Shown: positions 13,296 to 64,000, counted from the stretch's first letter. The stretch is 64,000 nucleotides of DNA from Pseudomonadota bacterium (GCA_003353845.1 PIVT01000004.1:12283-76282); one strand, 5' to 3'. The notes: a model not told the origin generated them from the sequence alone. Made by a program: numbers and translations.

Positions 13296-13369
13296 TCCAA
13301 ACAAAACTGTGGACCTCTTCCTGCCCTTTGTTAGAACATGGGACAGGGCAAGCATGGAGAAGAACAGGG

Positions 13370-14788: not shown

Positions 14789-14806
14789 ATTCTTTGAGAA
14801 GTTTCC

Positions 14807-15964: not shown

Positions 15965-15985
15965 TGCTCTTGTTTGTAGCCCGTC

Positions 15986-16834
15986 TTATTTGTGCTTCGC
16001 GACGAACTCCGCAACTTTTTGAGTCCAGTCTGAAGTTTCATTCATCTTGGAAACAACGTGCAGTTCGCTGTTGGGAATCAGTTCCACCAGCTCTTCTGCC
16101 GTAGAGACAGGATGTCCGGGATCACCTGTCCATGCAAGAATCAGTGTGGGCTGTTCCAACTTGGAGAGCAGTGAGGGATCGGGCAGGTCAGATTCACCCA
16201 GGCCACGGAAGGCGGCGACGCCGGAGCGACGATCCTGATCGTGGGCGTGGCGAACCATGGAATGGACCAGGTGACCGGCAGGTGAATCGTACCCACCAGG
16301 CAGGGAGAGTGAACCGACAAACTGGAGTGGGAAAAAACCGATGAGGCGCACGGCTTGTGCGGCATAGCGATAAAGTTTCGCCTGGCGTGGGCGCGTGTCC
16401 CAGGCCGTGGGAGGCGCCATGAGCACGAGCGCTTTTACGCGTTCGGGTGAGTGCACGGCGGTGTGAAGGGCGACGGCACAGCCCATGGAGACTCCGCCGG
16501 CCACAAACTCATCGATATCAAGTGCATCGGTGAGCCCCAATAAATCTTCGGTGAGGGCGGAAAAGTGAAAATCTATCGGGTCGTGGCAATGTTGAGACTC
16601 GCCATGCCCACGTGCGTCGTAGCGAACGACACGCGTTTGCTGCGTTAGCTCTTTCCAGCGCAGAAGATTGGCATCATCGTCTTGTCCCATATCGCCCAAA
16701 AGGCAGTGCCCCCACAAAAGAGGACACGGATCTTCGGGGCCTTCTTCGCGCACGGCTAATTCTGCGCCACGCACGTAGACCCAACGCTGGTTGGGATGAG
16801 TTGCGTCGCCCGCCTTATTGCCGCGCATCTGCAC
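15986..16834 (-). CDS. alpha/beta hydrolase
   Basis: Nucleophile elbow GVSMGCAVAL (GxSxG), an HG-type oxyanion region (LLWGHCLLGD) and a C-terminal His region. Overlaps the upstream gene by 20 nt. Confidence 0.8.
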   Translation of the reverse strand: MQMRGNKAGDATHPNQRWVYVRGAELAVREEGPEDPCPLLWGHCLLGDMGQDDDANLLRWKELTQQTRVVRYDARGHGESQHCHDPIDFHFSALTEDLLGLTDALDIDEFVAGGVSMGCAVALHTAVHSPERVKALVLMAPPTAWDTRPRQAKLYRYAAQAVRLIGFFPLQFVGSLSLPGGYDSPAGHLVHSMVRHAHDQDRRSGVAAFRGLGESDLPDPSLLSKLEQPTLILAWTGDPGHPVSTAEELVELIPNSELHVVSKMNETSDWTQKVAEFVAKHK

Positions 16835-18005: not shown

Positions 18006-18034
18006 TCTTGTTCTCCTGGTGGCATTGAGAAAAT

Positions 18035-19441
18035 TCAGCCTTCGATGGCGCGTTTAAGTTCCTCTACGCCATTCTCAATACCCTCTGTCAAGAGCCACGG
18101 CTCGGGCACGAGGTTTGGATCTAGCATGAATCCAAAATTTATATCCTTTACGTAACTCATAATCGTAATGCTCAATCCCATTCCGACGAGAACCGGGGCC
18201 AGGGGGAAGACGGCTTCGACTTTCCCACCGCAGATGTAGAGCGGGAAAGGAGGTCCCGGGACGTTGGAAATGATGGTGTTGGCTTGTAGCGGAATTTTCC
18301 CTTCGAGCTTGGCAGAGTTCAGAATCCATCCGGCCAGCTCAATGGCTACTGGCGGAAGAGCGGTGCCCATGGCCTGGACATCGGTTGCTCCCAGGTCCCC
18401 CGCAATCTCTTTGGCGGCCAGGGATCGCCTGTTGATTTCCTTGAGCCGTTTCACGGGGTCTTTGAGATGGGTTTCCAAGGAAACGGAAAGCGTCCCGACT
18501 TGATTGTCGAGGTTCTTGTCCCCCTCGGCGCGCGTCGAAATGGGCACGCCAGCGATGAGAGTCTCTTCGGGTAGTGCATTCTGCGCTTGGAGGTAGCTGC
18601 GCAGGGCCGAACCACAGACGGCCAAAAGAACATCATTTACTTTGACGTCGAAATGTTTTTTGATGGCTTTCACATCGTCCAATGAAACGCTGGCAAAGGT
18701 GATGCCACGGCGCGAAGTGAGGGGGTTATTGAAAATGGTGCGCGGAGCCTCGCCAGCAAGCAAATCACGGTGCTTGCGCTTGTGGGGAATCATGGCCATG
18801 CTGCGCCAGCTCATCTTGGCCATCCATCCGGTGACGCGATAAGGCATTCCCATAAGGGATACGAGCCCTTGCTGGAACAACTCCATGTCACTGGGCTCTG
18901 GCTCTTGGGAGCCACGAGAGGAACGCTTGCGCTTTGCATTCTTCTCTTCTGGTTCTTCTGGGGGATTGGGTTCGAAGTCCGCCAATATCTCTCCCAACCC
19001 TACACCCGAAAGGCCGTCAAACATGCAGTGATGGGTCTTCAACAAGATGGCTGCACGTTGTTCAGCGAGGCCTTCGATGTACCAGATTTCCCACAAGGGT
19101 CTGCTGCGGTCGAGTTGACGGCTGAACAGTTGGGAGCTGAGTTCTGCTAACTCGTCCTCGCCCCCAGGTGCGGGCACAGACACCCGATGCACGTGATCCT
19201 CAACTCGAACGCCTTTGTTTTCAACCCAATAGGGCCTGTCCAAACCGAGGGGAACATGGCGTACCGTCCAGGAGAGTTTGGGCACGCGACCAATCCTCTC
19301 CGTCAGGGTACGCAGGAGCTTCTCAAAGCTGAAATCTTCTGCCTGGGAAGGGTCGATGACGGCAATGGCCCCTGTTGTCAGGGCCGAATTGGGCGTCTCG
19401 ATGGATAGGAAAATAGAATCATCACCTGCCAGTTGCTTCAT
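18035..19441 (-). CDS. wax ester synthase/diacylglycerol acyltransferase (WS/DGAT) family, paralogue 2
   Basis: HHCMFDG active-site motif and NVPGPPFPLY motif. Contains a charged insert, PEEPEEKNAKRKRSSRGSQEPEP. Confidence 0.85.
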   Translation of the reverse strand: MKQLAGDDSIFLSIETPNSALTTGAIAVIDPSQAEDFSFEKLLRTLTERIGRVPKLSWTVRHVPLGLDRPYWVENKGVRVEDHVHRVSVPAPGGEDELAELSSQLFSRQLDRSRPLWEIWYIEGLAEQRAAILLKTHHCMFDGLSGVGLGEILADFEPNPPEEPEEKNAKRKRSSRGSQEPEPSDMELFQQGLVSLMGMPYRVTGWMAKMSWRSMAMIPHKRKHRDLLAGEAPRTIFNNPLTSRRGITFASVSLDDVKAIKKHFDVKVNDVLLAVCGSALRSYLQAQNALPEETLIAGVPISTRAEGDKNLDNQVGTLSVSLETHLKDPVKRLKEINRRSLAAKEIAGDLGATDVQAMGTALPPVAIELAGWILNSAKLEGKIPLQANTIISNVPGPPFPLYICGGKVEAVFPLAPVLVGMGLSITIMSYVKDINFGFMLDPNLVPEPWLLTEGIENGVEELKRAIEG

Positions 19442-19693: not shown

Positions 19694-21310
19694 GTGGAAT
19701 TTCAACTAGCAGATCTTTTTGAATCTATGGCTGATCGGGTTCCTGATCGCGAGGCTATGGTTGCGGGTGACCGAAGGCTCACCTATGCCCAACTCGATGT
19801 GCGAGCCAATCAGTTGGCTCATCAGTTGAGTGCGTTGGGTGTTGGTGCTGGCGATCATGTGGGAATACAACTTCACAACGGCACCGAATACATCGAAGGC
19901 ATGTTGGCCGCTTTCAAGCTTCGTGCAGTGCCCATTAATGTGAACTATCGCTACATGGAAGAAGAGCTTCGCTACTTGTTTGACGATGCCGACCTGGTTG
20001 CGCTGATCTTGCACAAGAGTTTCCTCCCGCACGTGGTGCCGATCGCCTCATCACTGCCCAAGCTGAAGAACTATATCGTTGTCGATGAACCCTGTGAGGT
20101 GGTGGGGACTCTTCCCAGTGCATTGGATTATGAGACTTGCCTGGCAGCTTCCAGCGATAAGCGGATTGGGACCCCGCGATCATCGGAAGACCTCTACATC
20201 GTGTACACCGGTGGAACGACAGGAATGCCAAAGGGCGTCATGTGGTACCACGAGGATATCTTCTTCGCCGCCATGGGTGGTGGCGATGTGATGAAAACGG
20301 GTAACCCCGTAACGAAACCTGAACAGTTGGCAGAGCGTGTTCCCGAGAACACCCTGGGCGCATTGCCGGTACCTCCTTTTATGCACGCCGCGGCACAGTG
20401 GCTGGCCTTCACGACTTTATTTAGCGGTGGCAAGATTGTAGTTCCCGAAGGCGGAGGGTTTGATCCAGCAGAAATCTGGGACCTCGTCGCGCGGGAGAAA
20501 CTCTTGATGTTGGTGATCGTGGGTGACGCCATGGCTACCCCACTGGCCGACACTTTGGAAGCCAACCCCGATCGTTTCGATCTCAGCTCATTGATTGTGA
20601 TTGCGTCAGGTGGTGCGCTCTTCTCGCCTTCGACCAAAGAACGACTGCGTACCTTGCTTCCCAATCGCATCATCATGGACGGCTTGGGCTCTTCAGAAAC
20701 GGGGGTCATGGGCAATAAGTCGAGCATGCCAGGTGTAGACTTGGATGAAGAGCCGCTTTTTATGGTGAATGAAGAAACCGCGGTATTGGATGAGGATTTA
20801 AACCCCATCATTCCCGGGTCGGGAGAGATCGGTCATCTGGCGCGGAAGGGTCGTGTCCCCATTGGCTATTACAACGATACGGAGAAGTCTCGCAATACCT
20901 TCTTGACGGTGAATGGAGAGCGATGGGCGGTTCCGGGAGATATGGCGACGGTCGAAGCCAATGGAACGGTACGACTTCTGGGCCGAGAAAAGTTCAGCAT
21001 CAATACCGGAGGCGAGAAAGTCTTTCCGGAGGAAGTGGAGGCTGTGATCAAGAGCCATCCGGAGGTCTTTGATGTCCTGGTTGTCGGTCTTCCCGATGAT
21101 CGCTGGGGGGAAAAGATTGTAGCGGTGGTGCAGACACGCTCGGGTGCGGATATAACCCTCGAGCAATTGCGTGAATTCTGCTCGACTCGCATCTCGAATT
21201 TCAAAGAACCAAGGGGAGTGGTTCGAGCCGATACGATTCGCCGCTCACCAACGGGGAAGGCAGACTATGGGTGGGCGAAGGAGCGCGCGCTTCAGGGGTT
21301 GGGCGCCTGA
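19694..21310 (+). CDS. AMP-dependent acyl-CoA synthetase
   Basis: Motifs YTGGTTGMPKGV, SSETG, PGDMATVEANGTVRLLGREKFSINTGGEKVFPEEVE and the C-terminal SPTGKADY. GTG start follows a GAGG RBS. Confidence 0.85.
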   Translation: MEFQLADLFESMADRVPDREAMVAGDRRLTYAQLDVRANQLAHQLSALGVGAGDHVGIQLHNGTEYIEGMLAAFKLRAVPINVNYRYMEEELRYLFDDADLVALILHKSFLPHVVPIASSLPKLKNYIVVDEPCEVVGTLPSALDYETCLAASSDKRIGTPRSSEDLYIVYTGGTTGMPKGVMWYHEDIFFAAMGGGDVMKTGNPVTKPEQLAERVPENTLGALPVPPFMHAAAQWLAFTTLFSGGKIVVPEGGGFDPAEIWDLVAREKLLMLVIVGDAMATPLADTLEANPDRFDLSSLIVIASGGALFSPSTKERLRTLLPNRIIMDGLGSSETGVMGNKSSMPGVDLDEEPLFMVNEETAVLDEDLNPIIPGSGEIGHLARKGRVPIGYYNDTEKSRNTFLTVNGERWAVPGDMATVEANGTVRLLGREKFSINTGGEKVFPEEVEAVIKSHPEVFDVLVVGLPDDRWGEKIVAVVQTRSGADITLEQLREFCSTRISNFKEPRGVVRADTIRRSPTGKADYGWAKERALQGLGA

Positions 21311-48663: not shown

Positions 48664-48983
48664 GCTGAATACCGCGAGCTCCTGTGATCTCCGAGGTGGG
48701 CTATCGCTTGGGCAAATCGATTGGTTAGTAAGTGTGAGTTCGGCATTTCATTGGGTAAAGCTGAATCTGTAAATAAATTTTAAGCGCCGGCCGAGGTCTG
48801 CCTCGGCTGACCGACGATGCTGTAGGCGTCGCTATAACCCCTCTTCTAAAAAGGGTTTTTAGGGGTGTCTCCTTGCGGCTTTGGCTTCGCCGATTAACCT
48901 TGTGCTCGAAGAAGGAAATGAATCGCTAGAGGCGCTTGGCGACAAGGGAGCTTGTGCGCCGAAGGCCAGTTGCCGGAGTTGGA

Positions 48984-50372
48984 ATGGGACGTTGCAGTCA
49001 GATCTTGGTGATATTGGGGCTAGGTCTATGCGGTCTTACGCTTTCGGCTCATGCCGCCAATGATCTTCCCCGAAAGGCCGTATTGGACAAGGCGTGGCTT
49101 TCTTACCAACGAAACTATGATAGCACGAATGGCGGTCTGAAAGAGAGGGAAGAGGGCAGTGTGAAGCGGCCTTCAGATTTACCCATTCGCTTCTTGTTGC
49201 GAGAACACCGCCGCGTGAAGTCCCGGCAGGCCCTGCGCATGGCGCGCCGAACCTTGGACGCCATGCAAGAGGGTGGCCTTTATGACGAGGTGGACGGGGG
49301 CTTCCATGCCTATACCCGCGACGCGGCCTGGGAGGTTCCGGAAGGGGATAAACTTCTGGCGGTGAACGCTCGTATGGCACTTGTCTATTTAGAAGCGTAT
49401 CAGGTGACGGGCAATCCCAAGTATGCGAAGACCGTGACCGGAACCCTGCGCTTTGCCTTGCGCGAGTTGACGTCAACGGAAGGTCTTTTCCATGCCGGGC
49501 TGACGGCTAACGATCACAGTAAGGCCATGCGATATGAGCGGCAAGTCGTTGCCTGGAATGGGTTGATGATATCCGCCTTGATTCATGCAGGGGAAGTGCT
49601 TGAGGAACCCGATTTTATTAAAGCGGCCCTGCGCGCGGCAGATGTACTTTTGGATCGAGCCCTCAGCCAAGGGAAACTGGCACGAGATCTCTATCCGGAA
49701 GATCCACCTACCCAAGGTGAGTTGGATGACTACGCCTTTTTTGAAGCCAGTTTGATCAGTTTATTTGAAGTCACATCACAAGAAAAGTGGTTGGCGGCCG
49801 CCATGGACTTGCAAAGCACACTGGATCAGAAATTTTGGGACAGTCAGGGCGGCGGATACTTCAGCACGGAAGCTGATCACGCGAAAGCTTTGGCCCGTGA
49901 AAAAAGCTTGCGTGACGGAGCGCTTCCTGCGGGTAACTCTGTTGCAGCCATGAACCTCCTGCGCCTGTACAGTTTGACGGCCAATGAGGAATATCGAAAG
50001 CGAGCAAGAGACCTGTTCAAGGCCTTTGCCTCTCAACTGGCCGCTGACCCCGTTAGCTCAAGTGAAATGCTCTTGGCACTGGATTTTTATTTCGACACGC
50101 CCAAAGAAATTTTGATCGTTGCGCCAACAGATCGAGACCAGGCAGACGCTTTTGTGCGTCACTTGCACGGGATCTTTCTCCCCAACCGAATTCTCGTCGT
50201 CGTATCTGAGGCTGAAGCGGAAAGTTTGTCTGAGCGCCTACCGGTATTCCAAGGGAAGCGCGCCTTGGCAGACCAGGTGACAGCCTATGTCTGTGAGAAT
50301 CACACCTGTGAGCGACCGGTGACAAGCTTGGAAGACTTTCAGGGGCAACTTTTAAAGTCATCCTCTTGGTAG
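48984..50372 (+). CDS. YyaL/SSP411-like (alpha/alpha)6 domain protein with a signal peptide and no N-terminal thioredoxin (DUF255) domain
   Basis: Signal peptide MGRCSQILVILGLGLCGLTLSAHA. Family-typical LEAYQVTGNPKY, LDDYAFFEASL, GGYFST, LPAGNSVAAMNLLRL and C-terminal AYVCENHTCERPV. ATG 48984 lies 5 nt after GGAG. Confidence 0.7.
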   Translation: MGRCSQILVILGLGLCGLTLSAHAANDLPRKAVLDKAWLSYQRNYDSTNGGLKEREEGSVKRPSDLPIRFLLREHRRVKSRQALRMARRTLDAMQEGGLYDEVDGGFHAYTRDAAWEVPEGDKLLAVNARMALVYLEAYQVTGNPKYAKTVTGTLRFALRELTSTEGLFHAGLTANDHSKAMRYERQVVAWNGLMISALIHAGEVLEEPDFIKAALRAADVLLDRALSQGKLARDLYPEDPPTQGELDDYAFFEASLISLFEVTSQEKWLAAAMDLQSTLDQKFWDSQGGGYFSTEADHAKALAREKSLRDGALPAGNSVAAMNLLRLYSLTANEEYRKRARDLFKAFASQLAADPVSSSEMLLALDFYFDTPKEILIVAPTDRDQADAFVRHLHGIFLPNRILVVVSEAEAESLSERLPVFQGKRALADQVTAYVCENHTCERPVTSLEDFQGQLLKSSSW

Positions 50373-52404: not shown

Positions 52405-52866
52405 CTACTCAGGAAAGTAGCGGCTGATGGTGTCGATGATGAGGGCGGGTCGATCACTGCCTTCAATTTCTACCGTGACGCGCACGGTGGATTGAATGGC
52501 ACCCTTCTTGACCTCTTCGGCTGCAATGAGTTCACCGCCACCACGAATCTTGGAGCCCACGGGAACGGCTGCGGGGAAGCGCACCTTGTCCGTGCCGTAG
52601 TTCACGCCCATGGAGATTCCCTGCACGTCGATAATTTCGGGCAGGAATCGATTGACCAGGGAAAGGGTGAGGTAACCGTGTGCGATGCAGGTGCCAAAGG
52701 GACCCTCGGCGGCCTTGGCCGGGTCCACGTGAATCCATTGGTGATCGTCGGTGGCGTCCGCAAAGGTGTTGATGCGATCTTGGGTGATTTCCATCCATTC
52801 GCTGTAGCCCAGGTGGTTGCCAACGGCGGAGAGAAGTTCGGAGGGTGTTTTGAATACAGTAGGCAT
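52405..52866 (-). CDS. MaoC-like (R)-specific enoyl-CoA hydratase (hot-dog fold)
   Basis: FADATDDHQWIHVDPAKAAEGPFGTCIAHGYLTLS hydratase-2 motif; 153 aa. Confidence 0.85.
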   Translation of the reverse strand: MPTVFKTPSELLSAVGNHLGYSEWMEITQDRINTFADATDDHQWIHVDPAKAAEGPFGTCIAHGYLTLSLVNRFLPEIIDVQGISMGVNYGTDKVRFPAAVPVGSKIRGGGELIAAEEVKKGAIQSTVRVTVEIEGSDRPALIIDTISRYFPE

Positions 52867-52897
52867 AATGTGTTTCCTTCTCGATGAGCTCAGTTGA

Positions 52898-53680
52898 TCA
52901 GGCGCGTTGGCTGCTGACGGAGACGATTTCCCCTGTCATGTAACTGGTGTAGTCGCTGGCAAGCATGACCATGACATTGGCAACTTCCCAAACTTCTGCG
53001 GCACGCCCGAAGGCTTCTTTTTTGGTGAGTTCTGCTAATAGCTCGTCCGTTGTGACCTTGGCGAGGAACTTGTGCATGGCCAGGCTCGGCGAGACGGCAT
53101 TGATGCGAATCCCGTAATCAGCCGCCTCCAAAGCAGAGCAACGAGTGAGCGCCATGACACCGGCTTTGGCGGCTGCGTAATGGCACTGGCCTTTTTGTGC
53201 GCGCCAACCCACCACCGAGGCATTGTTGATGATGGCACCGCTCTTGCGTGTGTACATGTGCTTTAGTGCTGCGCGTGTCATACGCATGGTCCCGGTTACC
53301 GTAATGTCCATGACAAGGTTCCACTGCTCGTCGGTCATGTCCACCAGTGGAACTTCACCGCCCAGGCCCGCATTGTTGATGAGTACGTCGATGTGTCCCA
53401 TCTCGGCAATGGCGGCATCGACCAATCCTTGGACGTCTTCTTCCTGGGTGACATTGCAAATTCGGCTACCCACGGGTTGGTCGCCGACCTTCTCTAGCTC
53501 TGCGACGGCTTCGGCCAGGCGGCGCTCGTGAACGTCGCTGATAAACACGCGCGCACCTTCTTCGATGCAACGTTTGGCCGCGGAGAAGCCTATGCCGGTT
53601 CCGGCAGCAGCGGTGATCAATACAGTTTTACCTGCGAGCAGGTTATGTCCTTCGACATAGGGAGGGGCCGTTTGGCTCAT
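52898..53680 (-). CDS. SDR family oxidoreductase with an atypical TAAAGTGIG cofactor motif
   Basis: GKTVLITAAAGTGIGFS, NNAG and YAAAK motifs. Confidence 0.9.
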   Translation of the reverse strand: MSQTAPPYVEGHNLLAGKTVLITAAAGTGIGFSAAKRCIEEGARVFISDVHERRLAEAVAELEKVGDQPVGSRICNVTQEEDVQGLVDAAIAEMGHIDVLINNAGLGGEVPLVDMTDEQWNLVMDITVTGTMRMTRAALKHMYTRKSGAIINNASVVGWRAQKGQCHYAAAKAGVMALTRCSALEAADYGIRINAVSPSLAMHKFLAKVTTDELLAELTKKEAFGRAAEVWEVANVMVMLASDYTSYMTGEIVSVSSQRA

Positions 53681-53755
53681 GCGATTCCTCTTTTCCTCGG
53701 TTGCCGTAGGAAACCAAGCTGATGTGTTTACCGTGTTACGTACCCTGGTGTTGCC

Positions 53756-54949
53756 TTAGGGGCGCGGTTCCCGTGGCAGTCCCAGTGCGCGCTCACCAAT
53801 GATATTGCGTTGAATCTCATTGGAGCCCGCGTAGATGGTTTCGGAGCGACTGAAGAGGAAGATCTTCTGGAACTCGTTGATATCGTAATCGTGCTTACCG
53901 TCTTGGTTGAGCAGATCCGAAGCGGTTCCCAGTACCTCCATGGCCAACTCGCCCAAGTCGCGATGCCAGTTCGCCCAGTACAACTTGGTAACCATTTGGA
54001 CAGGGTCGAGTTCGCCACCGTCGATACCGTCCAATGCGCGCATGGCGTTAAAGCGCATGATGCGCAGCTTCAAGTATGAATCAGCCAGCTTTTGTCGCTG
54101 GATGGGATCCTTGGCAGCACCGTTTTCCCTGGCTGCTTCGAGAATTTTTTCAAGCTCCTGGGCAAAGGCGAGTTGTTGTCCCAGGGTGGAAGCCCCGCGT
54201 TCAAAACTCAGGGTGCCCATGGACACTTTCCAGCCGCCGTTTTCTTCACCGATGCGATTGTCGACGGAGGTGCGTGCATCGGTAAAGAAGGTTTCCGAAA
54301 ACTCACACTCTTTGGTGATCTGAACGATGGGGACGGTGGTCACGCCCGGTTGATCCATGGGAACCAAGAGGTAGGAGATGCCCTTGTGCTTGGGTCGCAC
54401 CTCGGGATCCGTGCTGCAGACGATGAAGGTCCAATCGGACCAATCGGCACCGGAGGTCCATACTTTCTGTCCGTTGATGACGTATTCATCGCCGTCGCGC
54501 ACGGCACGCGTTTGAACGTTGGCCAGGTCGGATCCGGCATTGGGTTCGGAGTAACCCTGACACCAGATGTCTTTGCCTGACAAGATCCCCGGTAGGAAGC
54601 GTTTCTTTTGTTCGTCGGTACCGAAGAAGGCAATGGTGGGAGCGGCCAGTCCTTCACCCACGTGGCCAATACGGTGTGGGCCGTTGGCCCGCGCATACTC
54701 TTCATAGAAGATCACTTGTTGTTGCAGGGGCAGGTCGCGGCCGCCTACGCTCTTGGGCAATCCAATGCCAATCCAGCCGGCCTCGCCCATGACGCATTCC
54801 CAAGCGCGTCGTTCTTCGATCATGTCTTCGGGGCCACCGGGCATGTGAGCACCGCGCAGGCATTCGAAGTCACCGCGCAGGTTGTCGGCCATCCACTTAG
54901 CGGCCTCTTCCCTAAAACGTTCATCCTCTTCGTTGTATCGTAGGTCCAC
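53756..54949 (-). CDS. acyl-CoA dehydrogenase
   Basis: YSEPNAGSD, GQKVWTS and the C-terminal IYAGSNEIQRNIIGERALGLPR. Paralogous to 38126-39295. Confidence 0.9.
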   Translation of the reverse strand: MDLRYNEEDERFREEAAKWMADNLRGDFECLRGAHMPGGPEDMIEERRAWECVMGEAGWIGIGLPKSVGGRDLPLQQQVIFYEEYARANGPHRIGHVGEGLAAPTIAFFGTDEQKKRFLPGILSGKDIWCQGYSEPNAGSDLANVQTRAVRDGDEYVINGQKVWTSGADWSDWTFIVCSTDPEVRPKHKGISYLLVPMDQPGVTTVPIVQITKECEFSETFFTDARTSVDNRIGEENGGWKVSMGTLSFERGASTLGQQLAFAQELEKILEAARENGAAKDPIQRQKLADSYLKLRIMRFNAMRALDGIDGGELDPVQMVTKLYWANWHRDLGELAMEVLGTASDLLNQDGKHDYDINEFQKIFLFSRSETIYAGSNEIQRNIIGERALGLPREPRP

Positions 54950-55219: not shown

Positions 55220-55657
55220 TTGCTCAATGGGCCATCAGATTTCGACACGGTTCAAGCCCCGGAGAACACAGTGCAAAATGATGTTGGAGAGAGCAGTAGT
55301 GGAGCCTGGTTGAAATTCCCCGATGGGGTCTCCGTGGTGATTGGGGGTAGCGGTGGGCTGGGACGAGCCATTTGTCAGGGATTTGCCACCGCAGGCTGCG
55401 ACATCGTGTTCACCTACCGAAGCGATTTTGAGGCGGTCAAGGAGGTTGCAGCCTTGACTGAGGCGCAAGGGCGCGGTGCGGAATTTCATCAGCTAAGTAT
55501 CAGTGATGCGATGGGGTCCAAACTCTCCATTGGTTTTATTGGTGAAGTAGATTCCGAAGAATGGGGTAGGGTGATGGACGAAGATGCAACCTGGGAAAAG
55601 GCCGCTATTGGAAATACCGCACTCAAGCACTTTGGTAGGCCGGAGGAAGTTGTTTGA
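55220..55657 (+). pseudogene. internally deleted SDR relic (Rossmann N-terminus fused to the SDR C-terminal tail; catalytic core missing)
   Basis: Has VVIGGSGGLGRAICQGFATAGCDIVFTYR, EEWGRVMD and then directly ALKHFGRPEEV. No NNAG, Ser or YxxxK region. About 145 aa versus about 250 for SDRs. No in-frame ATG; only TTG or GTG starts. Confidence 0.5.
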
Positions 55658-56820
55658 TGTCCATCGAGGATGACAAGAGCCCGAATGAAACCGAACGTCG
55701 CAGACTGGAGAGTCTGGGCGCGCTGACTCCGGGGATTATTCACGAATTCAACAATCTCCTGAATATCTTTGTGGGCAACCTCGGGTTGATTGAGGAGCGC
55801 ATCCATGGGGATGAATTGCTGAGTCAATGCATTGAGGATATGCACGACGCGAGCCAGCGCGCCGCTCGACTTTGTCGACTGGTGCAGAGTCAAGCCAGTG
55901 GCAACGTGGGAGAGGTATCGACGTTTGAGCTGAATAGTCTTGTTGAAGAGAGCGCGACTCTTGTTCAGGCCGCTTTTTTGAAAGGGGCGAAGTTGGACCT
56001 TCAACTCACTCCGGATTTGCCAGAGCTTGCGCGGACAGGGCCAGAGCTTCGACAGGCTCTCACGACCCTATTGCTAAACGCTGCAGCCCCCGTCATGCGA
56101 CAAGATGCGACGGTTGAAGTCCGAACGGCTTTGGCCTCTGAGGAAGACAGAGCTGCAGAGGAAGTGTGGGAGCCCTTGCGTGGTAGTGAAGGGAAGGTCC
56201 TGATGGTCGAGGCATGGATCCAGGGCGGAGAGGTGGAGAATGCATCGCCACTCGAAAGAGAAGGGCTGGAGGTTCCGGGCTTCGCCTTGTCCAGCGCTCG
56301 CGAGATTGTGAGAAGCTTGGGGGGAGATCTTTGCTGGGTTGAATCGCCGAGCCGAGGCAGACGGCTACGCCTGTTGATTTCCTGTAATGGGAAGGCCGCG
56401 GCACAAGCCGCCAGGCAGACGGCTTCGGCTGATCGTGTGTTGACCTTTGAGGGGACGGTGCTTGTGGTGGATGATGAGAAGTCATCGAGAAAAGTCATAG
56501 GCACGATTCTGGAACGATTGGGTTCTATGGTTTTGGCGGCGTCCAGTGGTGAAGAGGCTTTGTCGATTTATGAAAAGCACGGTGAGCAGATTGCATTGGT
56601 GATGCTCGACATGTCCATGCCGGGGCTGGGTGGAAAAGAGACCTTCCGTCGTTTGTCCGCCTTGGATGAGAATGTAAAAGTCTTGGTGATGAGTGGCTAT
56701 GATGAGGGCACTGGCTTGGATGGGCTAAAGAAAGAGGAGGTGTTGGGTTATTTGCAAAAACCCTTTCGCCTGCAAGGTCTCAAGGACAAGTTGGTGGAGA
56801 TCCTGCCCGGTCTTAGTTGA
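55657..56820 (+). CDS. hybrid histidine kinase / response-regulator receiver with no sensor or TM domain
   Basis: H-box GIIHEFNNLLN about 35 aa from the N-terminus, N-box LLLNAA, no clear DxGxG G1 box, and a C-terminal receiver (VLVVDDEKSSR...LDMSMPGLGG...KP). ATG overlaps the upstream TGA as TGATG; the ORF-track start is TTG 55654. Confidence 0.8.
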   Translation: MSIEDDKSPNETERRRLESLGALTPGIIHEFNNLLNIFVGNLGLIEERIHGDELLSQCIEDMHDASQRAARLCRLVQSQASGNVGEVSTFELNSLVEESATLVQAAFLKGAKLDLQLTPDLPELARTGPELRQALTTLLLNAAAPVMRQDATVEVRTALASEEDRAAEEVWEPLRGSEGKVLMVEAWIQGGEVENASPLEREGLEVPGFALSSAREIVRSLGGDLCWVESPSRGRRLRLLISCNGKAAAQAARQTASADRVLTFEGTVLVVDDEKSSRKVIGTILERLGSMVLAASSGEEALSIYEKHGEQIALVMLDMSMPGLGGKETFRRLSALDENVKVLVMSGYDEGTGLDGLKKEEVLGYLQKPFRLQGLKDKLVEILPGLS

Positions 56821-56870: not shown

Positions 56871-58487
56871 TTAGCGGAGTCGTTTCTCGGCCTGCTCCCG
56901 CAAAACAAACTTGGTGACCTTGCCCGAGGCTGTCATGGGAAGCTCCGAAACGATCTCGACGTAACGCGGCACCTTGTAATTGGCCATCTGCTCCCGGCAC
57001 CAGGCGATCACCCCTTCTTCGGTGAGTTCCGCTCCAGCGGTTGGAATGACGAAGGCCATGCCGACCTCACCCATGCGGTCATCGGGCACGCCGATCACCG
57101 CCGCTTGGGCGATCTCCTCGTGTTCGAACAAGCCGTTCTCGATCTCCGCGGGGTAGCAGTTGAAGCCGCCCATGAGGAACATGTCCTTGATGCGATCGGT
57201 GATTCGCAGGTAGCCCCGATCGTCCATCACACCGATGTCGCCGGTGTGCAGCCAGCCCTCCGCGTCGATGGTCTTGGCGGTCTCTTCAGGGTTGTCGAGG
57301 TAGCCTTGCATGAGGTTGTAGCCGCGCACCACCACCTCGCCCGGCTCTCCGCGAGGGACTTCCTTCCCCTCCGTGTCCACGCAGAGTACCTCGATATCCG
57401 GGATGGCCCGGCCGGAGGTCGTGGCGACGGTCTCGGGGGAATCTTCCTCGCGGCAGATGGTTACAGGACCGGTGCACTCGGTGAGCCCGTAGCCGGTGAT
57501 AATGGTCTCGAAGCCGAGCTCGCTGCGCATCCGGTGGATCAACTCCACGGGGATCACGGCGGCGCCGGTGATGGCAAGGCGCAGGCTGGAGAGATCGAAT
57601 TTCTGCAGATCGGGGTGGGCCAGAATCGTCTGGTAGAGCGTGGGCGGACCGGGGAGGGCGCTAACCTTATCCCTTCCAATTCGCTCCAATACCGCCGGAA
57701 CGTCGAAGATCGCATGCGGAAGGATCGTCGCGCCGCGCATGATCGCCGCCATCCAGCCCGCCTTGTAGCCGAAGTTGTGGAAGAAGGGATTTACGATCAG
57801 ATAGCGATCGCCCTCTCGAAGACCGACGATCCCGCTCCACGCCTCGAAGCAGCGGAGATTCTGGCCGTGGGCGGTCATCACCCCCTTGGGCTTCCCCGTC
57901 GTTCCAGAGGTGAACAGGATGTCCGCGATGTCGTCGGCGGAGACGGCCTCGGCACGTTCCTGCGCTTGCTCCGCGCTGACGGCCTCGCCTTCCGCGAGGA
58001 AGTCGGTCCATGAAGTCGTGTCCGCCGCGGCGTTCTCGTCTCCCCGCAGGAGAACGATTCGCTCAAGCTGTGGTAACGCGGCGATGGGGCCTGTTGAACT
58101 CGGGCCTCCCAGGGAATCGCGCAGCAGGCCGACGTAATCGGTGTCCAGGAATTGGTCCACGGTGCACAGGATGAGCGCTCCGCTCGCCTCGAGGACGTAG
58201 CCCGCCTCGCTTCCTTTCATCCGTGTATTGATCGTTACCAGCACCCCGCCTGCCGATTGCAGGCCGATTGCGGCCACTACCCATTCGTGAATGTTCTGTG
58301 CCCAGATCGCGACGCAATCGCCCGGCTGGACACCGGCGGCGATGAACGCTCGTGCTGCCCGCGTTCCCGCAGCAGAAAGCTCTGTAAAGCTCAGGGTTAG
58401 ATCGCCTTCTTCGATGGCAATCCGATCTCCAAAGCGTTGGGCGGCGCCTTGAACCAGTCTTGGAATCGTGTCTTCGAATGAACTCAT
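56871..58487 (-). CDS. AMP-dependent acyl-CoA synthetase (FadD3-like by recollection), compositionally atypical
   Basis: FTSGTTGKPKGV, GYGLTE, HTGDIGVMDDRGYLRITDRIKDMFLMGGFNCYPAEIE and TASGKV motifs. Visibly higher GC and GC3 than its neighbours. Confidence 0.9.
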   Translation of the reverse strand: MSSFEDTIPRLVQGAAQRFGDRIAIEEGDLTLSFTELSAAGTRAARAFIAAGVQPGDCVAIWAQNIHEWVVAAIGLQSAGGVLVTINTRMKGSEAGYVLEASGALILCTVDQFLDTDYVGLLRDSLGGPSSTGPIAALPQLERIVLLRGDENAAADTTSWTDFLAEGEAVSAEQAQERAEAVSADDIADILFTSGTTGKPKGVMTAHGQNLRCFEAWSGIVGLREGDRYLIVNPFFHNFGYKAGWMAAIMRGATILPHAIFDVPAVLERIGRDKVSALPGPPTLYQTILAHPDLQKFDLSSLRLAITGAAVIPVELIHRMRSELGFETIITGYGLTECTGPVTICREEDSPETVATTSGRAIPDIEVLCVDTEGKEVPRGEPGEVVVRGYNLMQGYLDNPEETAKTIDAEGWLHTGDIGVMDDRGYLRITDRIKDMFLMGGFNCYPAEIENGLFEHEEIAQAAVIGVPDDRMGEVGMAFVIPTAGAELTEEGVIAWCREQMANYKVPRYVEIVSELPMTASGKVTKFVLREQAEKRLR

Positions 58488-58567
58488 GGGGTGCTACTCT
58501 ACCCATCGAGTCGTTCAACAGCAAGCTGAGGAACTCGCTGCTGGGTGAGATCTTCACCACGTTCTGA
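58478..58567 (+). mobile_element. relic of the C-terminal part of a DDE (rve/integrase-core) transposase
   Basis: The + frame reads MNSWGATLPIESFNSKLRNSLLGEIFTTF then a stop. IESFNxKLRxxLLxGEIF matches the conserved motif downstream of the catalytic E in IS3/IS481-type transposases as I recall it. There is no upstream ORF. Confidence 0.45.
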
Positions 58568-58799: not shown

Positions 58800-59552
58800 A
58801 TGAGGTTGGCTGACAAGGTAGCGATAGTAACTGGGGCAGCGCGTGGGATTGGTCGCGAGATTGCTCTGGCTCTTGTTCGTGAAGGGGCCAAGGTGACAAT
58901 CAGTGACCTGGACATGGATCCGCTGAACGATGTGGTTAATGAGATCAAGGCCGCAGGTGGCGAGGCATTGCCCTGCCGGGTCGATGTGACGAACAGCGCA
59001 GAGATCAACAAGATGGTCGAAGCCACCATTGAGACGTTTGGGAAAATTGACATCCTGGTCAACAACGCCGGTGGAAGTGCGCGGGATAGAGCCTCTGATT
59101 TTAATGAAGCACCGGAAGAGGTCTGGAAGGCAACGCTAGAACGTAATCTTCACGGGACGCTTGGCTGCACCCGAGCTGTGATCAACCACATGATCGAACA
59201 AAAGAGTGGCAAGATCGTGAATTTCGCCTCGGTTAACGGTATCTCGGGACAATCTGGGTTTGTCGACTACTCGGCGGCCAAAGCTGGGATCATCGGCTTC
59301 ACCAAGGCGCTGGCCAAAGAGGTCAATTCCTGCGGAATCAATGTCAATGCCATCGCCCCGGGAGTGATTGAAACCCGAGTCGTTGAACAGATTCCCAAGG
59401 AGACGATCACAGGAATCATCGAGAGTTTGAATCTTAATAGGCTAGGGCAGCCCGAAGATATAGCCAATGCGGTGCTATATCTGACCTCCGAAGAGGCGTC
59501 TTATGTCCAAGGCCATATACTCAGGGTTTGTGGTGGAGGGTTTATCTCCTAG
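58800..59552 (+). CDS. SDR family oxidoreductase (FabG-like 3-oxoacyl reductase)
   Basis: KVAIVTGAARGIGREIA, NNAG, YSAAKAG and RLGQPEDIANAVLYL motifs. AAGGAGG RBS. Confidence 0.9.
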   Translation: MRLADKVAIVTGAARGIGREIALALVREGAKVTISDLDMDPLNDVVNEIKAAGGEALPCRVDVTNSAEINKMVEATIETFGKIDILVNNAGGSARDRASDFNEAPEEVWKATLERNLHGTLGCTRAVINHMIEQKSGKIVNFASVNGISGQSGFVDYSAAKAGIIGFTKALAKEVNSCGINVNAIAPGVIETRVVEQIPKETITGIIESLNLNRLGQPEDIANAVLYLTSEEASYVQGHILRVCGGGFIS

Positions 59553-59780: not shown

Positions 59781-61304
59781 ATGGATCGGTACAATTACGA
59801 TTGCCTGTCGGGCCAAGACAACGACTTTTTGCGCTGGGAAAAACCCGGGCTGCCCATGCACCTGGCGGGCCTGCAAGTTTTTCGAGCGGGTCCACTCTTG
59901 AATGAATACGGTGGTGTTGATTTCGAGAAGATAAGAGAGATGACCATTGGGTTGCTGCATCTTATCCCGCGATGTCGGCAGAAGCTGGAATGGGTTTTAG
60001 AAGGTAAAGCCGCGGTGTGGGTAGACGATCCAAATTTTAACCCGGGCTATCACATACGCCACATGAGCTTGCCGAGACCGGGGACGCGAAGAAGTCTGCA
60101 AGAGCTTTTCGGAAACATCATGGCACAGCCACTGGATCGGTCGAAGCCGCTGTGGGAACTCTGGGTTGTTGAGGGCTTGGAAGGAGAGCGCTTCGCCACC
60201 GTGTTAAAGGCTCATCACTGCATGATGGACGGAGTTGCAGGAGTCGACTTTGCCTCGCGGCTACTATCAAGATCGCCCGATGCCGGAGCTTTAGAAGAGC
60301 TTCCTTACTACCCTCGTCCAATCCCTACTCGCATGGAGTTGTTGAGTGACGAAGCCGTGCGACGGCTGTCTCAGCCACTTCAGACGGCTGCTGACTTTAC
60401 ACATTTTGTGAAGGACACAGCAGATTTAAGTGTTGATTTGGGCCGGCGGGCTCGCGCAGTGGGTGAGGTGTTGGGATTGAAAGTCAATCCGGCGTCTGAA
60501 ACTCCCATTAACGGTCCTGTGGGGCCACATCGCGCTTTTGAAGGCGTGAAGATGTCTCTGGAGCGTGCAAAGAAAATCCGCAGCTTCTTGGGGTGCTCCG
60601 TCAATGATGTTGTGTTGACTGTGGTCACAGGTGCGGTGCGTGAGTACATGCAAGATCACCAGGTTCGCCCTGAAGGACTGGATTTTCGGGTGGAAGCGCC
60701 GGTCAACGTTCGGCGTGATGTCGGTGAAGGAAAGTTGGGGAATCGGGTTTCTTCCTGGGTGGTACGACTTCCTTTGGGTGAGAAAAACCCACTCCGGCAG
60801 TTGGCTGCGATTCATCGATCCACCGAAGAATTAAGGGAAACCAAGCACGCGGCAGTGGTGGAACTGTTACACCATTTTCTCGACTGGATCGCCTTTGACA
60901 TTCAGAGCGTGGCTAGCGGGGTGATGAACATGATCGTAACCAACGTAGTTGGCCCCCGAGTGCCTCTTTACATGCTGGGCTCGGAATTGGAAGAGGCCTA
61001 TCCAGTGGCACCTCTATTAGAAAATTTGGGGCTGAGCGTCGGCTTGTTTAGCTATAACGGGTATCTGTTTTGGGGGTTGATGGCCGACTCGGATCGCATT
61101 CCAGATCTCGCACACTTCGCAAACCTGATCCAAACCAGCTTTAATCGTTTAGAGGCTGCTGCGCTGGAAGAAGAGAAGCGGAAAAGAACGAGGCGAAAGT
61201 CGAATCTGACGAAAGCCAAAGATGTCGAGCATAGGTCGACAACACGGCCGAGACGGGAACGCCCCGCGCCACGAGGCCGACCGGGAAAGCAGCCAGGGGC
61301 CTAG
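59781..61304 (+). CDS. WS/DGAT family, paralogue 3, with an Arg/Lys-rich C-terminal tail
   Basis: HHCMMDG active-site motif and NVVGPRVPLY. The last ~45 aa are EEEKRKRTRRKSNLTKAKDVEHRSTTRPRRERPAPRGRPGKQPGA. Confidence 0.85.
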   Translation: MDRYNYDCLSGQDNDFLRWEKPGLPMHLAGLQVFRAGPLLNEYGGVDFEKIREMTIGLLHLIPRCRQKLEWVLEGKAAVWVDDPNFNPGYHIRHMSLPRPGTRRSLQELFGNIMAQPLDRSKPLWELWVVEGLEGERFATVLKAHHCMMDGVAGVDFASRLLSRSPDAGALEELPYYPRPIPTRMELLSDEAVRRLSQPLQTAADFTHFVKDTADLSVDLGRRARAVGEVLGLKVNPASETPINGPVGPHRAFEGVKMSLERAKKIRSFLGCSVNDVVLTVVTGAVREYMQDHQVRPEGLDFRVEAPVNVRRDVGEGKLGNRVSSWVVRLPLGEKNPLRQLAAIHRSTEELRETKHAAVVELLHHFLDWIAFDIQSVASGVMNMIVTNVVGPRVPLYMLGSELEEAYPVAPLLENLGLSVGLFSYNGYLFWGLMADSDRIPDLAHFANLIQTSFNRLEAAALEEEKRKRTRRKSNLTKAKDVEHRSTTRPRRERPAPRGRPGKQPGA

Positions 61305-61942
61305 GAAACTTCCTTTAAGGCTTCTTGGTAAAATGCGTGGCATCCATCATAAAATTCTCGGTGTTGCTCAGTGAAGTAAGGCGCGAGAAGTGACATGACT
61401 TGGAATGCGCCTTGATGCATGAGGAGGTGCGAAGGAGTCTCGCTTGTGCGCAATTGCTGAAAATTCATCCAAAATGTGATGGTCATGGTGATGCTATCGG
61501 CGAGCTGGGTAATTTCCTCCTCGTCGATATTGATGATTTGCTTTTGCATCAAGGAGGTGCAGATGGCTTTTGCAGTGAGCCTTTTCAGGTCGAGAAGTCG
61601 ACTGAAGCGTCGGTGGAGCACTTCGAAGCGCTGCAATAGATCTGAAAGGTTGCGGTAGATGAAACGGTACTCATGGATTTCCTCAAATACGACATAGAGA
61701 AAAAACCAGTTGTCTTCGAGGCTGAGAGGGTTCTCAATGGGGGCTTTCAGAATGCTGGTTAGCTCGTGTTCAAAACGATCGAAGAGTTCGGGGATGATGG
61801 CTTCTTTCCCGCGGAAATGGTAGTAGAGATTTCCGGGGCTGATGTTCATCTCATTGGCAATTTCCAGGGTTGTGACGTGAGATTCCCCCTCTTCATTGAA
61901 GAGAAGCAGACTTGTCTGAAGGATGCGTTCGCGGGTCTTCAT
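61301..61942 (-). CDS. TetR family regulator, PhaD-like
   Basis: N-terminus MKTRERILQTSLLLFNEEGESHVTTLEIANEMNISPGNLYYHFRGKE closely resembles my recollection of Pseudomonas PhaD (MKTRDRIL...ISPGNLYYHF.GKE). Starts 9 bp downstream of the phasin gene on the same strand. Confidence 0.8.
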   Translation of the reverse strand: MKTRERILQTSLLLFNEEGESHVTTLEIANEMNISPGNLYYHFRGKEAIIPELFDRFEHELTSILKAPIENPLSLEDNWFFLYVVFEEIHEYRFIYRNLSDLLQRFEVLHRRFSRLLDLKRLTAKAICTSLMQKQIINIDEEEITQLADSITMTITFWMNFQQLRTSETPSHLLMHQGAFQVMSLLAPYFTEQHREFYDGCHAFYQEALKEVS

Positions 61943-61951
61943 AAGGTCAGG

Positions 61952-62377
61952 TCAGGCTTTCTTCGATTTTGTCTTGCGAACAGTCTTTTTCTTGCTCGTC
62001 GATTTTTTTGCAGAGCGTGATTTTGTTCGCGTTTTGCTTTTCGGCTCGATCGTATCCATGAGCTTGCCTAGTTTCTTTTCCAAGGCGGCGACTCTCTTTG
62101 TCAGGGCCGTGAGTTGGGGATCTTGTTTGTGGTCAAAACCCAGGCCATGGCGCACACGTTCGATGCGGTCTTCGATGGAGATGGTGGAAAACTCTCGCGC
62201 TTTGTTTACTCGCTCGCTGGTTTCGGCTTCGAGGGATTTTCCTTTTTCAACAAGTTCATCAAAGTATTTACTTGTTCCCTTGCCGACTTTTTCCACGGCC
62301 TCATTGAGCTTTGATCCGTAGGCACCGAGCCCGGCGAGCCAGATATTTTTGGCGATATCACTTCCTTTTTCTGACAT
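61952..62377 (-). CDS. PhaF/PhaI-type phasin (polyhydroxyalkanoate granule-associated protein family) with a Lys-rich C-terminal tail
   Basis: NIWLAGLGAYGSK matches the conserved KIWLAGLGxYSK of the PhaF/PhaI N-terminus. There is a leucine-zipper-like segment, and the tail is KSKTRTKSRSAKKSTSKKKTVRKTKSKKA. Start set at ATG 62377 (GGAG RBS). Confidence 0.8.
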   Translation of the reverse strand: MSEKGSDIAKNIWLAGLGAYGSKLNEAVEKVGKGTSKYFDELVEKGKSLEAETSERVNKAREFSTISIEDRIERVRHGLGFDHKQDPQLTALTKRVAALEKKLGKLMDTIEPKSKTRTKSRSAKKSTSKKKTVRKTKSKKA

Positions 62378-62659
62378 GTCTCTCGGCTCCGATTTCTCGA
62401 TGAGTTTTTCGTTGAGTTGATCGTTATGGATCGTAGTGCCCAAGCGGCTTACCTAGCTTTTTGCAGCAGTAATCGTACCAGTGAAATCTAGAAAATACAT
62501 ACTAATCGGCGGAGTTGGTGAGGTTCTCGAGCGGGGATTTGTGCCGACACGTGGAGGGCGATGAGGTATCTTTTCTGCTGGCTCCCCCCGCCAGAATCTG
62601 GTCTTTATCGGTGTTTTTGGTGGTAGCTGGGAGTCACTCAAAACGCCGGAGAAAGACGA

Positions 62660-63766
62660 ATGACGCCAGCAAAAAGCCCCGCGACGAAGAAAACCACACA
62701 GAAACCACCGGCCAAGAAGAAAGGCTCCGCTAGAAAGGCCCGCTCGGGAACCGGGGCCTCTGCGTCTCCCAAGAAGGCCAAGGCATCCGCTGCCCCCAAG
62801 AAAGCGACGGGGGCAAATGGAGCAAAACGCCGGGGTACTAAAGGAGAGGGGCTGTATAGAGGCGAGATTATACTGGCATTGAAATATGAGCACCGATACA
62901 TGAACCGTGTATTTGATGCTTTCAAGGAGCAGCTGGAAATCATGGATGATGGCGGCCATGCTGATTTTGAGCTGATGGCTGATGTGATTCGGTACATGTG
63001 TCGTTTTCCCGACAAGTCGCACCACCCGCGCGAGGACGTGGTTTTCCGAAAACTCATGGAGCGAGACGAAGACTTGCGCAGTGACATCGAAGCGGTCTTT
63101 GTTCAGCATGAGACGCTTGCTCAAAAAGGCCACGCACTTCTGAAGAGTCTGGATGAGATCTCGAAAGACCAAAGTGTTGAACAACAGAAGAGCCTTCGAT
63201 TCCGTTGCGCGGATTACCAAGAAATCTATGAGAAGCACATGGATTTCGAGGAGGTAAAATTATTCCCGCTATTGGAGACCGTGTTAAGGGATGAAGATTG
63301 GGATGATATTTCCAAGAACCTGAACGTTGAACGACACCCGATGCCGGAAAAGCGTGTTGGCAAGCAATACCGCGCCTTGAATGAGTATTTATCAGATCAG
63401 TTTGAGCACGTGGCGGATGAGTTTACTTTGATCAAATATTTTGGCGTCGGTGCGTTCGTTGAAAATATCGGCACTTTTCTCACCAGCGCTTCTGAAATAA
63501 AATCGGTTGTGAATCGTCAATCTCAAAAGGCCTTCCGCGGTAACTCGCGCGCGTATAAGCGTTTGCGACAGCGAAAAGTGGCGGCCCAGGATTTTGTCGC
63601 AGTTCCAGTGGATTGTTTTCTGGATAACTTTGATATTTACAATGAAAGTATGAAGGAGATCGGGGGGATCTTGCGCAAGGCGAGGCGGCGAGTTGCTGAG
63701 CCCTATGTCTCTCGAATGGAGATTTTCCACGACATGGAACAAGGTAGGCACTCTTCGGAAGAGTGA
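62660..63766 (+). CDS. hemerythrin (HHE cation-binding) domain protein with a histone-H1-like Lys/Ala/Pro N-terminal tail
   Basis: The tail is TPAKSPATKKTTQKPPAKKKGSARKARSGTGASASPKKAKASAAPKKATGANGAKRRG. It is followed by H/E-rich helices (KSHHPREDVVFRKL, HETLAQKGH, HMDFEEVKLFPLLE). Confidence 0.7.
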   Translation: MTPAKSPATKKTTQKPPAKKKGSARKARSGTGASASPKKAKASAAPKKATGANGAKRRGTKGEGLYRGEIILALKYEHRYMNRVFDAFKEQLEIMDDGGHADFELMADVIRYMCRFPDKSHHPREDVVFRKLMERDEDLRSDIEAVFVQHETLAQKGHALLKSLDEISKDQSVEQQKSLRFRCADYQEIYEKHMDFEEVKLFPLLETVLRDEDWDDISKNLNVERHPMPEKRVGKQYRALNEYLSDQFEHVADEFTLIKYFGVGAFVENIGTFLTSASEIKSVVNRQSQKAFRGNSRAYKRLRQRKVAAQDFVAVPVDCFLDNFDIYNESMKEIGGILRKARRRVAEPYVSRMEIFHDMEQGRHSSEE

Positions 63767-63839: not shown

Positions 63840-64000
63840 ATGGAAGGGGCTATCCACAAACCATCGGTGGTCTCATCGATGTTGGAGCTGAGAGCGCCTT
63901 TCGAGGCGATCTCGCTGATCCCCGTGTTGCCTTTCTTGCAGCATGCACCCCGCGGAGAAGGGCAACCCGTCATCGTTTTCCCTGGATTTCTGGCGGGAGA
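63840..64000 (+). CDS. probable alpha/beta hydrolase, N-terminal fragment (continues beyond the window)
   Basis: ATG lies 7 nt after GGAG and the frame is open to the window end. It reads MEGAIHKPSVVSSMLELRAPFEAISLIPVLPFLQHAPRGEGQPVIVFPGFLAG. The PVIVFPGF segment is typical of the first strand and oxyanion region of alpha/beta hydrolases. Confidence 0.4.
   Translation, partial: MEGAIHKPSVVSSMLELRAPFEAISLIPVLPFLQHAPRGEGQPVIVFPGFLAG

Follow-up and report, generated by a model that had tools for sequence, protein, structure and literature searches.

A phasin-TetR-hemerythrin-hydrolase cassette beside a basic-tailed wax-ester synthase: a candidate neutral-lipid storage-body module in a Pseudomonadota genome

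Why should a PhaF-like phasin and a PhaD-like regulator, proteins of the kind that attend polyhydroxyalkanoate (PHA) granules, be encoded next to a synthase of neutral lipids? The question is raised by positions 59781-63766 of a 64,000-nucleotide stretch of DNA from a Pseudomonadota bacterium (GCA_003353845.1, PIVT01000004.1:12283-76282), the whole of which is referred to here as the window, with all coordinates counted from its first letter. The locus brings together a wax-ester synthase/diacylglycerol acyltransferase (WS/DGAT), a TetR regulator, a PhaF-like phasin, a two-domain hemerythrin and the beginning of a hydrolase-like gene; the phasin-TetR pair is co-directional and divergent from the hemerythrin-hydrolase pair, and the whole lies beside the WS/DGAT gene. 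Our proposal, which we regard as evenly poised between right and wrong, is that the locus is a storage-body module for neutral lipid (wax ester or triacylglycerol, TAG) built from the type of cassette that serves PHA granules elsewhere. Its components come from known families, and it is their combination, and probably their role, that appears to be new.

The WS/DGAT gene (59781-61304, plus strand) encodes a protein of 507 amino acids that matches TIGR02946 over its full length, with 385.8 bits against a curated cut-off of 309.95, as well as PF03007 (218.5 bits) and PF06974 (91.7 bits). The catalytic HHxxxDG motif reads HHCMMDG at residues 145-151 (nucleotides 60213-60233), and a wax-ester or TAG synthase activity is predicted from these matches. 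The protein ends in a polybasic tail, recognised by its composition, at residues 462-507 (61164-61301), where the final 46 residues hold 17 Lys or Arg against 6 Asp or Glu; the first-pass annotation, which had described an intact motif followed by a basic tail of about 45 residues, was right on both counts. The TetR gene (61301-61942, minus strand, 213 amino acids) is convergent with it and, as had been noted at the outset, the two stop codons overlap inside the CTAG at 61301-61304. The regulator scores 38.8 bits on PF00440 and 130 bits on PF13972, the architecture of PhaD, and it is 47% identical over 192 amino acids to a TetR of Hyphomonas oceanitis (locus L026) that is sited between phaC and a phasin gene, so that its earlier likening to PhaD holds. 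An inexact Pseudomonas putida PhaD sequence also scores on PF13972 and matches the window TetR at about 42%; with no exact database sequence behind it, this comparison serves as a lead only. In the window, the TetR adjoins WS/DGAT and the phasin, not phaC.

The phasin open reading frame covers 61952-62443 on the minus strand, with a TTG at 62443, but translation more likely begins at the ATG at 62377 (61952-62377, 141 amino acids), because a GGAG lies 9 nucleotides upstream of it and the homologues P0121-P0124 are also of 141 amino acids. From its N-terminus, the protein comprises a PF05597 domain, a segment of heptad repeats and a C-terminal tail rich in Lys, Ser and Thr (nucleotides 61955-62047). 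PF05597 is matched with 44 bits against a cut-off of 28.8, covering profile positions 4-75 of 126, and the best NCBIfam match (47.8 bits against 35) is with a Leptospira-named model of a "phasin-related domain", NF047773, whereas the cut-off of TIGR01837 (PHA_granule_1) is missed, with 36.3 bits against 94.7. The initial assignment to the PhaF/PhaI type is therefore upheld by PF05597 and is not upheld by TIGR01837; the Lys-rich tail noted with it is present. The final 31 residues include 15 Lys or Arg and a single Asp or Glu, without AKP repeats; basic C-terminal tails are common in the phasin family, with a net charge of at least +6 in the last 30 residues for 71 of 107 homologues. The phasin gene ends 9 bp upstream of the TetR start on the same strand, the spacing given in the first-pass annotation, and because of this proximity the two genes probably form one operon.

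Divergent from the phasin, the two-domain hemerythrin gene (62660-63766, plus strand) encodes 368 amino acids. Its HHE domain, residues 72-205, matches PF01814 with 38.2 bits against a cut-off of 25.3, and the predicted metal ligands His78, His122, His193 and Glu197 are invariant across six homologues; the C-terminal domain is conserved and helical, with no function assigned to it. A tail rich in Lys, Ala and Pro (19 Lys or Arg, 14 Ala and 6 Pro) occupies residues 1-64 (nucleotides 62660-62851), thus confirming a tail of about 60 residues that had been reported earlier without its end being stated: it is N-terminal. Few proteins belong to this family at full length: out of 1.84 billion representative proteins, those with E<=1e-30 make up 22 representative clusters, and a metagenome scan with the hemerythrin alignment returned two loci; the PDB holds no sequence relative. 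A single-sequence AlphaFold model of the protein was set aside, its mean pLDDT being 41.5. The hemerythrin gene is followed by an open reading frame (63840-64000, plus strand) that runs past the end of the window and matches the N-terminus of PGAP1/lipase-like, alpha/beta-hydrolase-like proteins of 267 and 284 amino acids in the related loci L086 and L001, respectively, in keeping with the probable alpha/beta hydrolase first proposed there. The hydrolases of L086, L001, L004 and L054 display weak similarity to BioH, PGAP1 and alpha/beta hydrolases, below the Pfam cut-offs. Orthology with PhaZ was considered and rejected, as no NCBIfam model of a PHA depolymerase matched any of these four proteins. 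Between the divergent phasin and hemerythrin genes, an intergenic alignment of the window with L086 and L087 revealed a conserved non-coding block of about 49 nucleotides (62460-62508), a candidate regulatory site that may be a promoter or an operator. The block contains no palindrome, no 14-mer with up to three mismatches is common to it and the region upstream of WS/DGAT, and a scan for promoters and terminators performed no better than on shuffled sequences.

The three basic tails are the most distinctive property of the locus, and we scored the terminal net charge, per 30 amino acids, of the 55 putative genes in the window. The three neighbours WS/DGAT, phasin and hemerythrin account for the three highest values (+15, +11 and +11); if the top three were scattered at random, they would all land in a run of four consecutive genes with a probability of about 157/26235, or 0.006. 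The three polybasic tails first noticed are thus the three extremes of the window. The other two WS/DGAT paralogues in the window lack such a tail and end directly after the catalytic fold. Beyond the window, a tail with a net charge of at least +6 is found on 10 of 15 WS/DGATs adjacent to the cassette and on 7 of 110 other homologues (Fisher p=2.5e-7, Mann-Whitney p=5e-4, tests that ignore shared ancestry and for which the background adjacency is not known). In the closest homologues of the window protein, P0001-P0010 and P0021, the tail sequence has diverged while its basic composition is kept; of the more distant WS/DGAT homologues, most have no basic C-terminal tail. The basic N-terminal tail of the hemerythrin is restricted to the closer relatives of the window. 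When the conservation of the tails is considered as a whole, it is the basic composition that persists in the closest homologues of WS/DGAT, phasin and hemerythrin, whereas the sequences themselves are poorly conserved.

The gene order is shared with several relatives. Locus L086, with a WS/DGAT 79% and a phasin 82% identical to those of the window, is collinear with it and extends past its end; read in the orientation of the window, it carries an acyl-CoA synthetase, one or more short-chain dehydrogenases/reductases (SDRs), WS/DGAT, TetR, phasin, hemerythrin, hydrolase, a second phasin-like protein (phasin2) with basic N- and C-terminal tails, and an ABC1 kinase. In L001, where WS/DGAT is 64% identical, the core runs WS/DGAT-TetR-phasin-hemerythrin-hydrolase-phasin2-ABC1, preceded by another, different TetR; the vicinity also includes a second WS/DGAT together with a HAD hydrolase and a carboxylesterase. 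L087, with a TetR 83% identical, has SDR, TetR, phasin, hemerythrin, hydrolase and phasin2; because so close a relative is without WS/DGAT, the gene has been recently gained or lost at this position. The phasin2 proteins, encoded in the stretches downstream of the hydrolase (L001 6557-8483, L086 37-1808, L087 4555-4974), are of about 140-156 amino acids, have basic tails and fall below the Pfam and NCBIfam cut-offs. An ABC1/UbiB-family kinase follows phasin2 in L001 and L086, with a basic N-terminus in L001, and the L087 contig ends earlier; judging from these relatives, the locus in the window probably continues beyond its end with phasin2 and an ABC1 kinase.

What is conserved beyond these relatives is the unit hydrolase-hemerythrin-phasin-TetR, found in eight distinct loci and kept in order across hemerythrin identities from 23% to 81%. 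The more distant ones are L088, L002/L003, L006 (a metagenome-assembled genome, MAG, of a gammaproteobacterium) and L018 (Spongiibacteraceae). In L088, whose hemerythrin is 42% identical, a hormone-sensitive lipase (HSL)-type Abhydrolase_3 gene and a WS/DGAT gene stand on the hydrolase side of the cassette, and an Abhydrolase_3 gene is also present in L002. L006 and L018 have no synthase within reach, their common flanks being genes for the Tsp protease and for a metallo-beta-lactamase-fold protein; in L002, L006 and L018 the metallo-beta-lactamase-fold gene comes after the cassette and the tail-specific protease gene before it, with an extra esterase in between in L002, and this shared gammaproteobacterial neighbourhood is free of any storage synthase. 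No PhaC was found in the eight core-clade loci, over up to 20 kb. The first-pass annotation had built the module around the WS/DGAT gene and suggested that the WS/DGAT-TetR-phasin synteny be followed: it is indeed conserved in L086 and L001, but WS/DGAT is adjacent in half of the core loci only and missing from L087, and the four-gene unit, not the synthase, is the fixed centre. The nearest named relatives also differ, being Myxococcota MAGs for WS/DGAT and Gammaproteobacteria MAGs for the cassette.

For the wider TetR-phasin family, species-representative genomes were scanned with the TetR alignment, and the neighbours of the best 80 of 593 confirmed relatives, among the matches listed, were annotated with custom-built profiles, the assignments being spot-checked by Pfam. 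In these 80 loci the TetR almost always adjoins a phasin-like gene, a pair that is common in Proteobacteria. About 22 of the 80 are linked to PhaC, mostly in Hyphomonadaceae and other alphaproteobacteria with two labelled Acidobacteria, and the PhaC of the alphaproteobacterial phaC-TetR-phasin loci was confirmed by PF07167. Betaproteobacteria have a version linked to WS/DGAT, in the order phasin-patatin lipase-TetR-WS/DGAT with the last two convergent, as in a Rubrivivax MAG (L072, 8027-13019) with a phasin (PF05597, 131 bits), a patatin-like lipase, TetR and WS/DGAT. Loci L057, L060, L065 and L070 are similar, the patatin gene having been confirmed in L072 only. In Litorivivens lipolytica the version is hydrolase-phasin-phasin-TetR, and in Halieaceae and Marinobacter TetR and phasin have no obvious further neighbour, the genes around the Marinobacter pair being uninformative (cyclopropane-fatty-acid synthase, sulphur transport). 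In a rough neighbour-joining tree, the window TetR groups with the loci that contain hemerythrin, and in Hyphomonas locus L054, which runs TetR-hydrolase-WS/DGAT with a hydrolase of the same family and a WS/DGAT that has a basic tail, the TetR falls within a PhaC-linked clade. Since the cassette adjoins PhaC or WS/DGAT according to lineage, and given the nesting of L054, exchange of the synthase at this slot is a real and repeated evolutionary pattern; the suggestion that a neutral-lipid synthase takes the synthase slot of a pha-type locus is thus substantiated as a pattern, and the cassette is exclusive to neither synthase.

The surroundings of the locus are rich in lipid genes. The window contains three WS/DGATs, three AMP-binding acyl-CoA synthetases, a thiolase, an acyl-CoA dehydrogenase, a MaoC dehydratase and SDRs, together with two beta-lactamase-family esterase-like genes and alpha/beta hydrolases. 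A FabG-like SDR (58800-59552, plus strand; PF13561 and PF00106, about 206 bits each) lies directly upstream of WS/DGAT; among NCBIfam models it comes closest to those for FabG/acetoacetyl-CoA reductase, without reaching the equivalog cut-offs, and the gene is kept in L086. Further upstream is an acyl-CoA synthetase of the AMP-binding type (56871-58487, minus strand; PF00501 282 bits, PF13193 83 bits), a gene that also occurs in L086, beyond the SDR genes on the WS/DGAT side; GC content is 0.62-0.64 across it (57000-58500) and 0.50-0.55 in the flanks. The window is unusually rich in genes of fatty-acid activation and beta-oxidation, which are located at 8501-11456, 19694-21310, 52405-54949 and 56871-58487. 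A second neutral-lipid cluster, at 13232-19441, holds the two tailless WS/DGAT paralogues (13232-14788, plus strand, and 18035-19441, minus strand), and between them are esterase-like genes of the beta-lactamase family (14807-15964 and 16815-18005) and an alpha/beta hydrolase (15986-16834). Upstream of the locus, at 48936-50372 and 55654-56820, are a gene with slight similarity to LanC (23.6 bits) and one whose product ends in a response-regulator receiver domain. A profile-bait search for PhaC (PF07167), with the bait validated by Pfam PF07167 on L021 and L026, found none in the 64-kb window, the only part of this genome that the search covered.

Comparison with known storage systems places the locus among several of them. 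PhaF of Pseudomonas binds nucleoid DNA through its basic tail, and the pha cluster of P. putida (phaC1-phaZ-phaC2-phaD / phaF-phaI) shares with the window a phasin of PhaF architecture (PF05597, a coiled-coil segment and a basic tail at the C-terminus), a PF00440+PF13972 TetR, and a hydrolase and a synthase in the same neighbourhood. It differs in that the synthase here is WS/DGAT instead of PhaC, the hydrolase matches no PHA-depolymerase model, the phasin tail is rich in Lys, Ser and Thr instead of AKP repeats, a basic tail is carried by the synthase itself, and the module has a hemerythrin gene and, in relatives, one for an ABC1 kinase as further members. The Pseudomonas-like gene order that had been invoked is not found either, as the phasin and TetR genes of the window point the same way, with 9 bp between them, and do not converge. 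The phaC-TetR-phasin loci of the Hyphomonas oceanitis L026 type have a TetR of the same subfamily beside a PF05597-type phasin, but there the neighbour is PhaC, whereas the sister locus L054 has a hydrolase and a basic-tailed WS/DGAT instead. In Cupriavidus necator, the activator PhaM, with its PAKKA-type tail, tethers PhaC1 and the granule to the nucleoid. The likeness to PhaM lies in a lysine-rich tail that links the synthase complex of a storage polymer to DNA; here, in contrast, the tail is fused to the synthase, a WS/DGAT, and no PhaM homologue was identified.

Outside the PHA systems, the closest parallel is MLDS of Rhodococcus jostii, the major droplet coat protein, encoded in an operon with its regulator (MLDSR); through its lysine-rich C-terminus, which binds DNA non-specifically, MLDS links the TAG droplets with the nucleoid (PMC5504291). 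This likeness is one of function and architecture, homology not being expected, and there are differences: a Gram-positive host, a regulator not described as a TetR, a tailless synthase and no hemerythrin. The lipid droplets of cyanobacteria and plastids carry ABC1 kinases (PMC12223511), and for that reason the extended module of L001 and L086, with its ABC1 kinase gene, fits a droplet system, although no fibrillins are encoded here and phasins do not coat the droplets there. The one hint of such a linkage that we found in print is a putative phasin gene mentioned in passing on one WS/DGAT scaffold (PMC10351704). In the full-text literature that could be searched, with subscription-only papers outside its reach, no phasin/TetR system for WS/DGAT products is described, so that within this literature the locus keeps the novelty for Gram-negative WS/DGAT that was first claimed for it. 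To our knowledge, and within the same literature, the wax-ester or TAG bodies of Gram-negative bacteria have no known structural or organising proteins.

In light of these comparisons, the proposed neutral-lipid module would work as follows. WS/DGAT would make neutral lipid, and the PhaF-like phasin would coat the resulting hydrophobic body via its amphipathic N-terminal domain. The PF13972 TetR may sense a lipid intermediate such as acyl-CoA and control the phasin and the divergent genes, while the alpha/beta hydrolase would mobilise stored esters, as PhaZ does PHA. The hemerythrin could couple the system to oxygen, redox or iron status, which is the weakest step of the scheme. The polybasic tails on synthase, coat and hemerythrin would be a common address that directs these proteins to a polyanionic surface, an address carried in relatives by phasin2 and the ABC1 kinase as well; by analogy with PhaF, PhaM and Rhodococcus MLDS we infer that the tails bind DNA, and the surface would then be that of the nucleoid, or else that they bind anionic lipid, in which case it would be anionic phospholipid. 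Once bound, the tails would bring synthesis, coat and regulation together on the droplet and position it in the cell.

This proposal has to be weighed against its counter-evidence and against other explanations of the same genes. In its favour, the linkage with WS/DGAT recurs independently, in betaproteobacteria and in Hyphomonas L054, and the accessory neighbours are all of neutral-lipid or lipid-droplet types (patatin, HSL-like esterase, ABC1 kinase). Several findings count against it. Adjacency is not universal: WS/DGAT is at most 3 kb away in four of the eight core loci, the SDR abuts TetR in L087 with no WS/DGAT between them, none stands beside the cassette in L002/L003, L006 and L018, and many gammaproteobacteria have only phasin(s) and TetR. 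The basic tail is missing from 5 of the 15 cassette-adjacent WS/DGATs. A search for a TetR operator found no inverted repeat in either promoter region. The main rival draws on the same incomplete adjacency, holding that the cassette serves the PHA granules of a PhaC encoded elsewhere and that WS/DGAT is a mere neighbour in a region rich in lipid genes. It can point to PF05597 as the family of PHA-granule phasins, to the roughly 22 of the best 80 loci in which PF05597 phasins and the same TetR subfamily stand beside PhaC, and to the MaoC (PhaJ-like) and FabG-like genes nearby, which could feed PHA synthesis. We nevertheless consider it unlikely, as PhaC is found neither in the window nor in the core-clade loci, adjacency to WS/DGAT recurs across unrelated lineages in different gene orders, and a phasin-like tail is carried by the cassette-adjacent WS/DGAT and not by its paralogues in the window; the hydrolase, moreover, is not PhaZ-like, and the phasin scores well below the TIGR01837 cut-off.

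The cassette may instead be a generic module for hydrophobic inclusions or fatty-acid stress, indifferent to the substrate, in which a phasin-like protein and an acyl-CoA-sensing TetR answer lipid overload and the tails bind the nucleoid or polyphosphate without any connection to WS/DGAT products. The gammaproteobacterial core that stands alone among housekeeping genes (Tsp protease, DNA polymerase III), and Marinobacter with TetR and phasin only, are as this explanation would have it, and AKP-type tails bind polyphosphate as well as DNA. Since it leaves unexplained both the basic tails specific to cassette-adjacent WS/DGATs and the repeated presence of neutral-lipid enzymes as neighbours, we judge it distinctly unlikely. 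Most improbable of all, in our view, is that the tails are functionally unrelated low-complexity extensions in a neighbourhood without joint function. The poor conservation of the tail sequences, the uneven occurrence of the hemerythrin tail, which L018 lacks and which is weak in L002 and L006, and the third of adjacent WS/DGATs without a basic tail would agree with this, but basic composition is maintained despite sequence divergence, the tailed neighbours rank first to third of 55 for terminal net charge, and the core order has been conserved down to 23% hemerythrin identity.

Returning to the neutral-lipid module, a bolder form of the proposal is that the locus exemplifies a dedicated and widespread wax-ester/TAG-body cassette of Gram-negative bacteria (phasin, PF13972 TetR and lipase, with or without hemerythrin), in which a polybasic address code on synthase, coats, hemerythrin and ABC1 kinase anchors the droplet machinery on a polyanionic surface, that of the nucleoid or another, and in which PhaC and WS/DGAT have been swapped repeatedly. 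We put this forward tentatively, as a possibility that is doubtful in its full extent. The idea is testable, because cultured carriers exist, among them Litorivivens lipolytica and Marinobacter, and WS/DGAT-linked versions occur in Hyphomonas and in relatives of Rubrivivax. If the cassette does serve neutral-lipid bodies, it would supply candidate coat, regulator, lipase and sensor proteins for research on such bodies in Gram-negative bacteria, and tailed synthases, phasin anchors and a lipid-responsive TetR would become engineering parts for the production of wax esters and TAG. It would also mean that polyester storage and neutral-lipid storage can exchange the parts of the PHA "carbonosome" toolkit.

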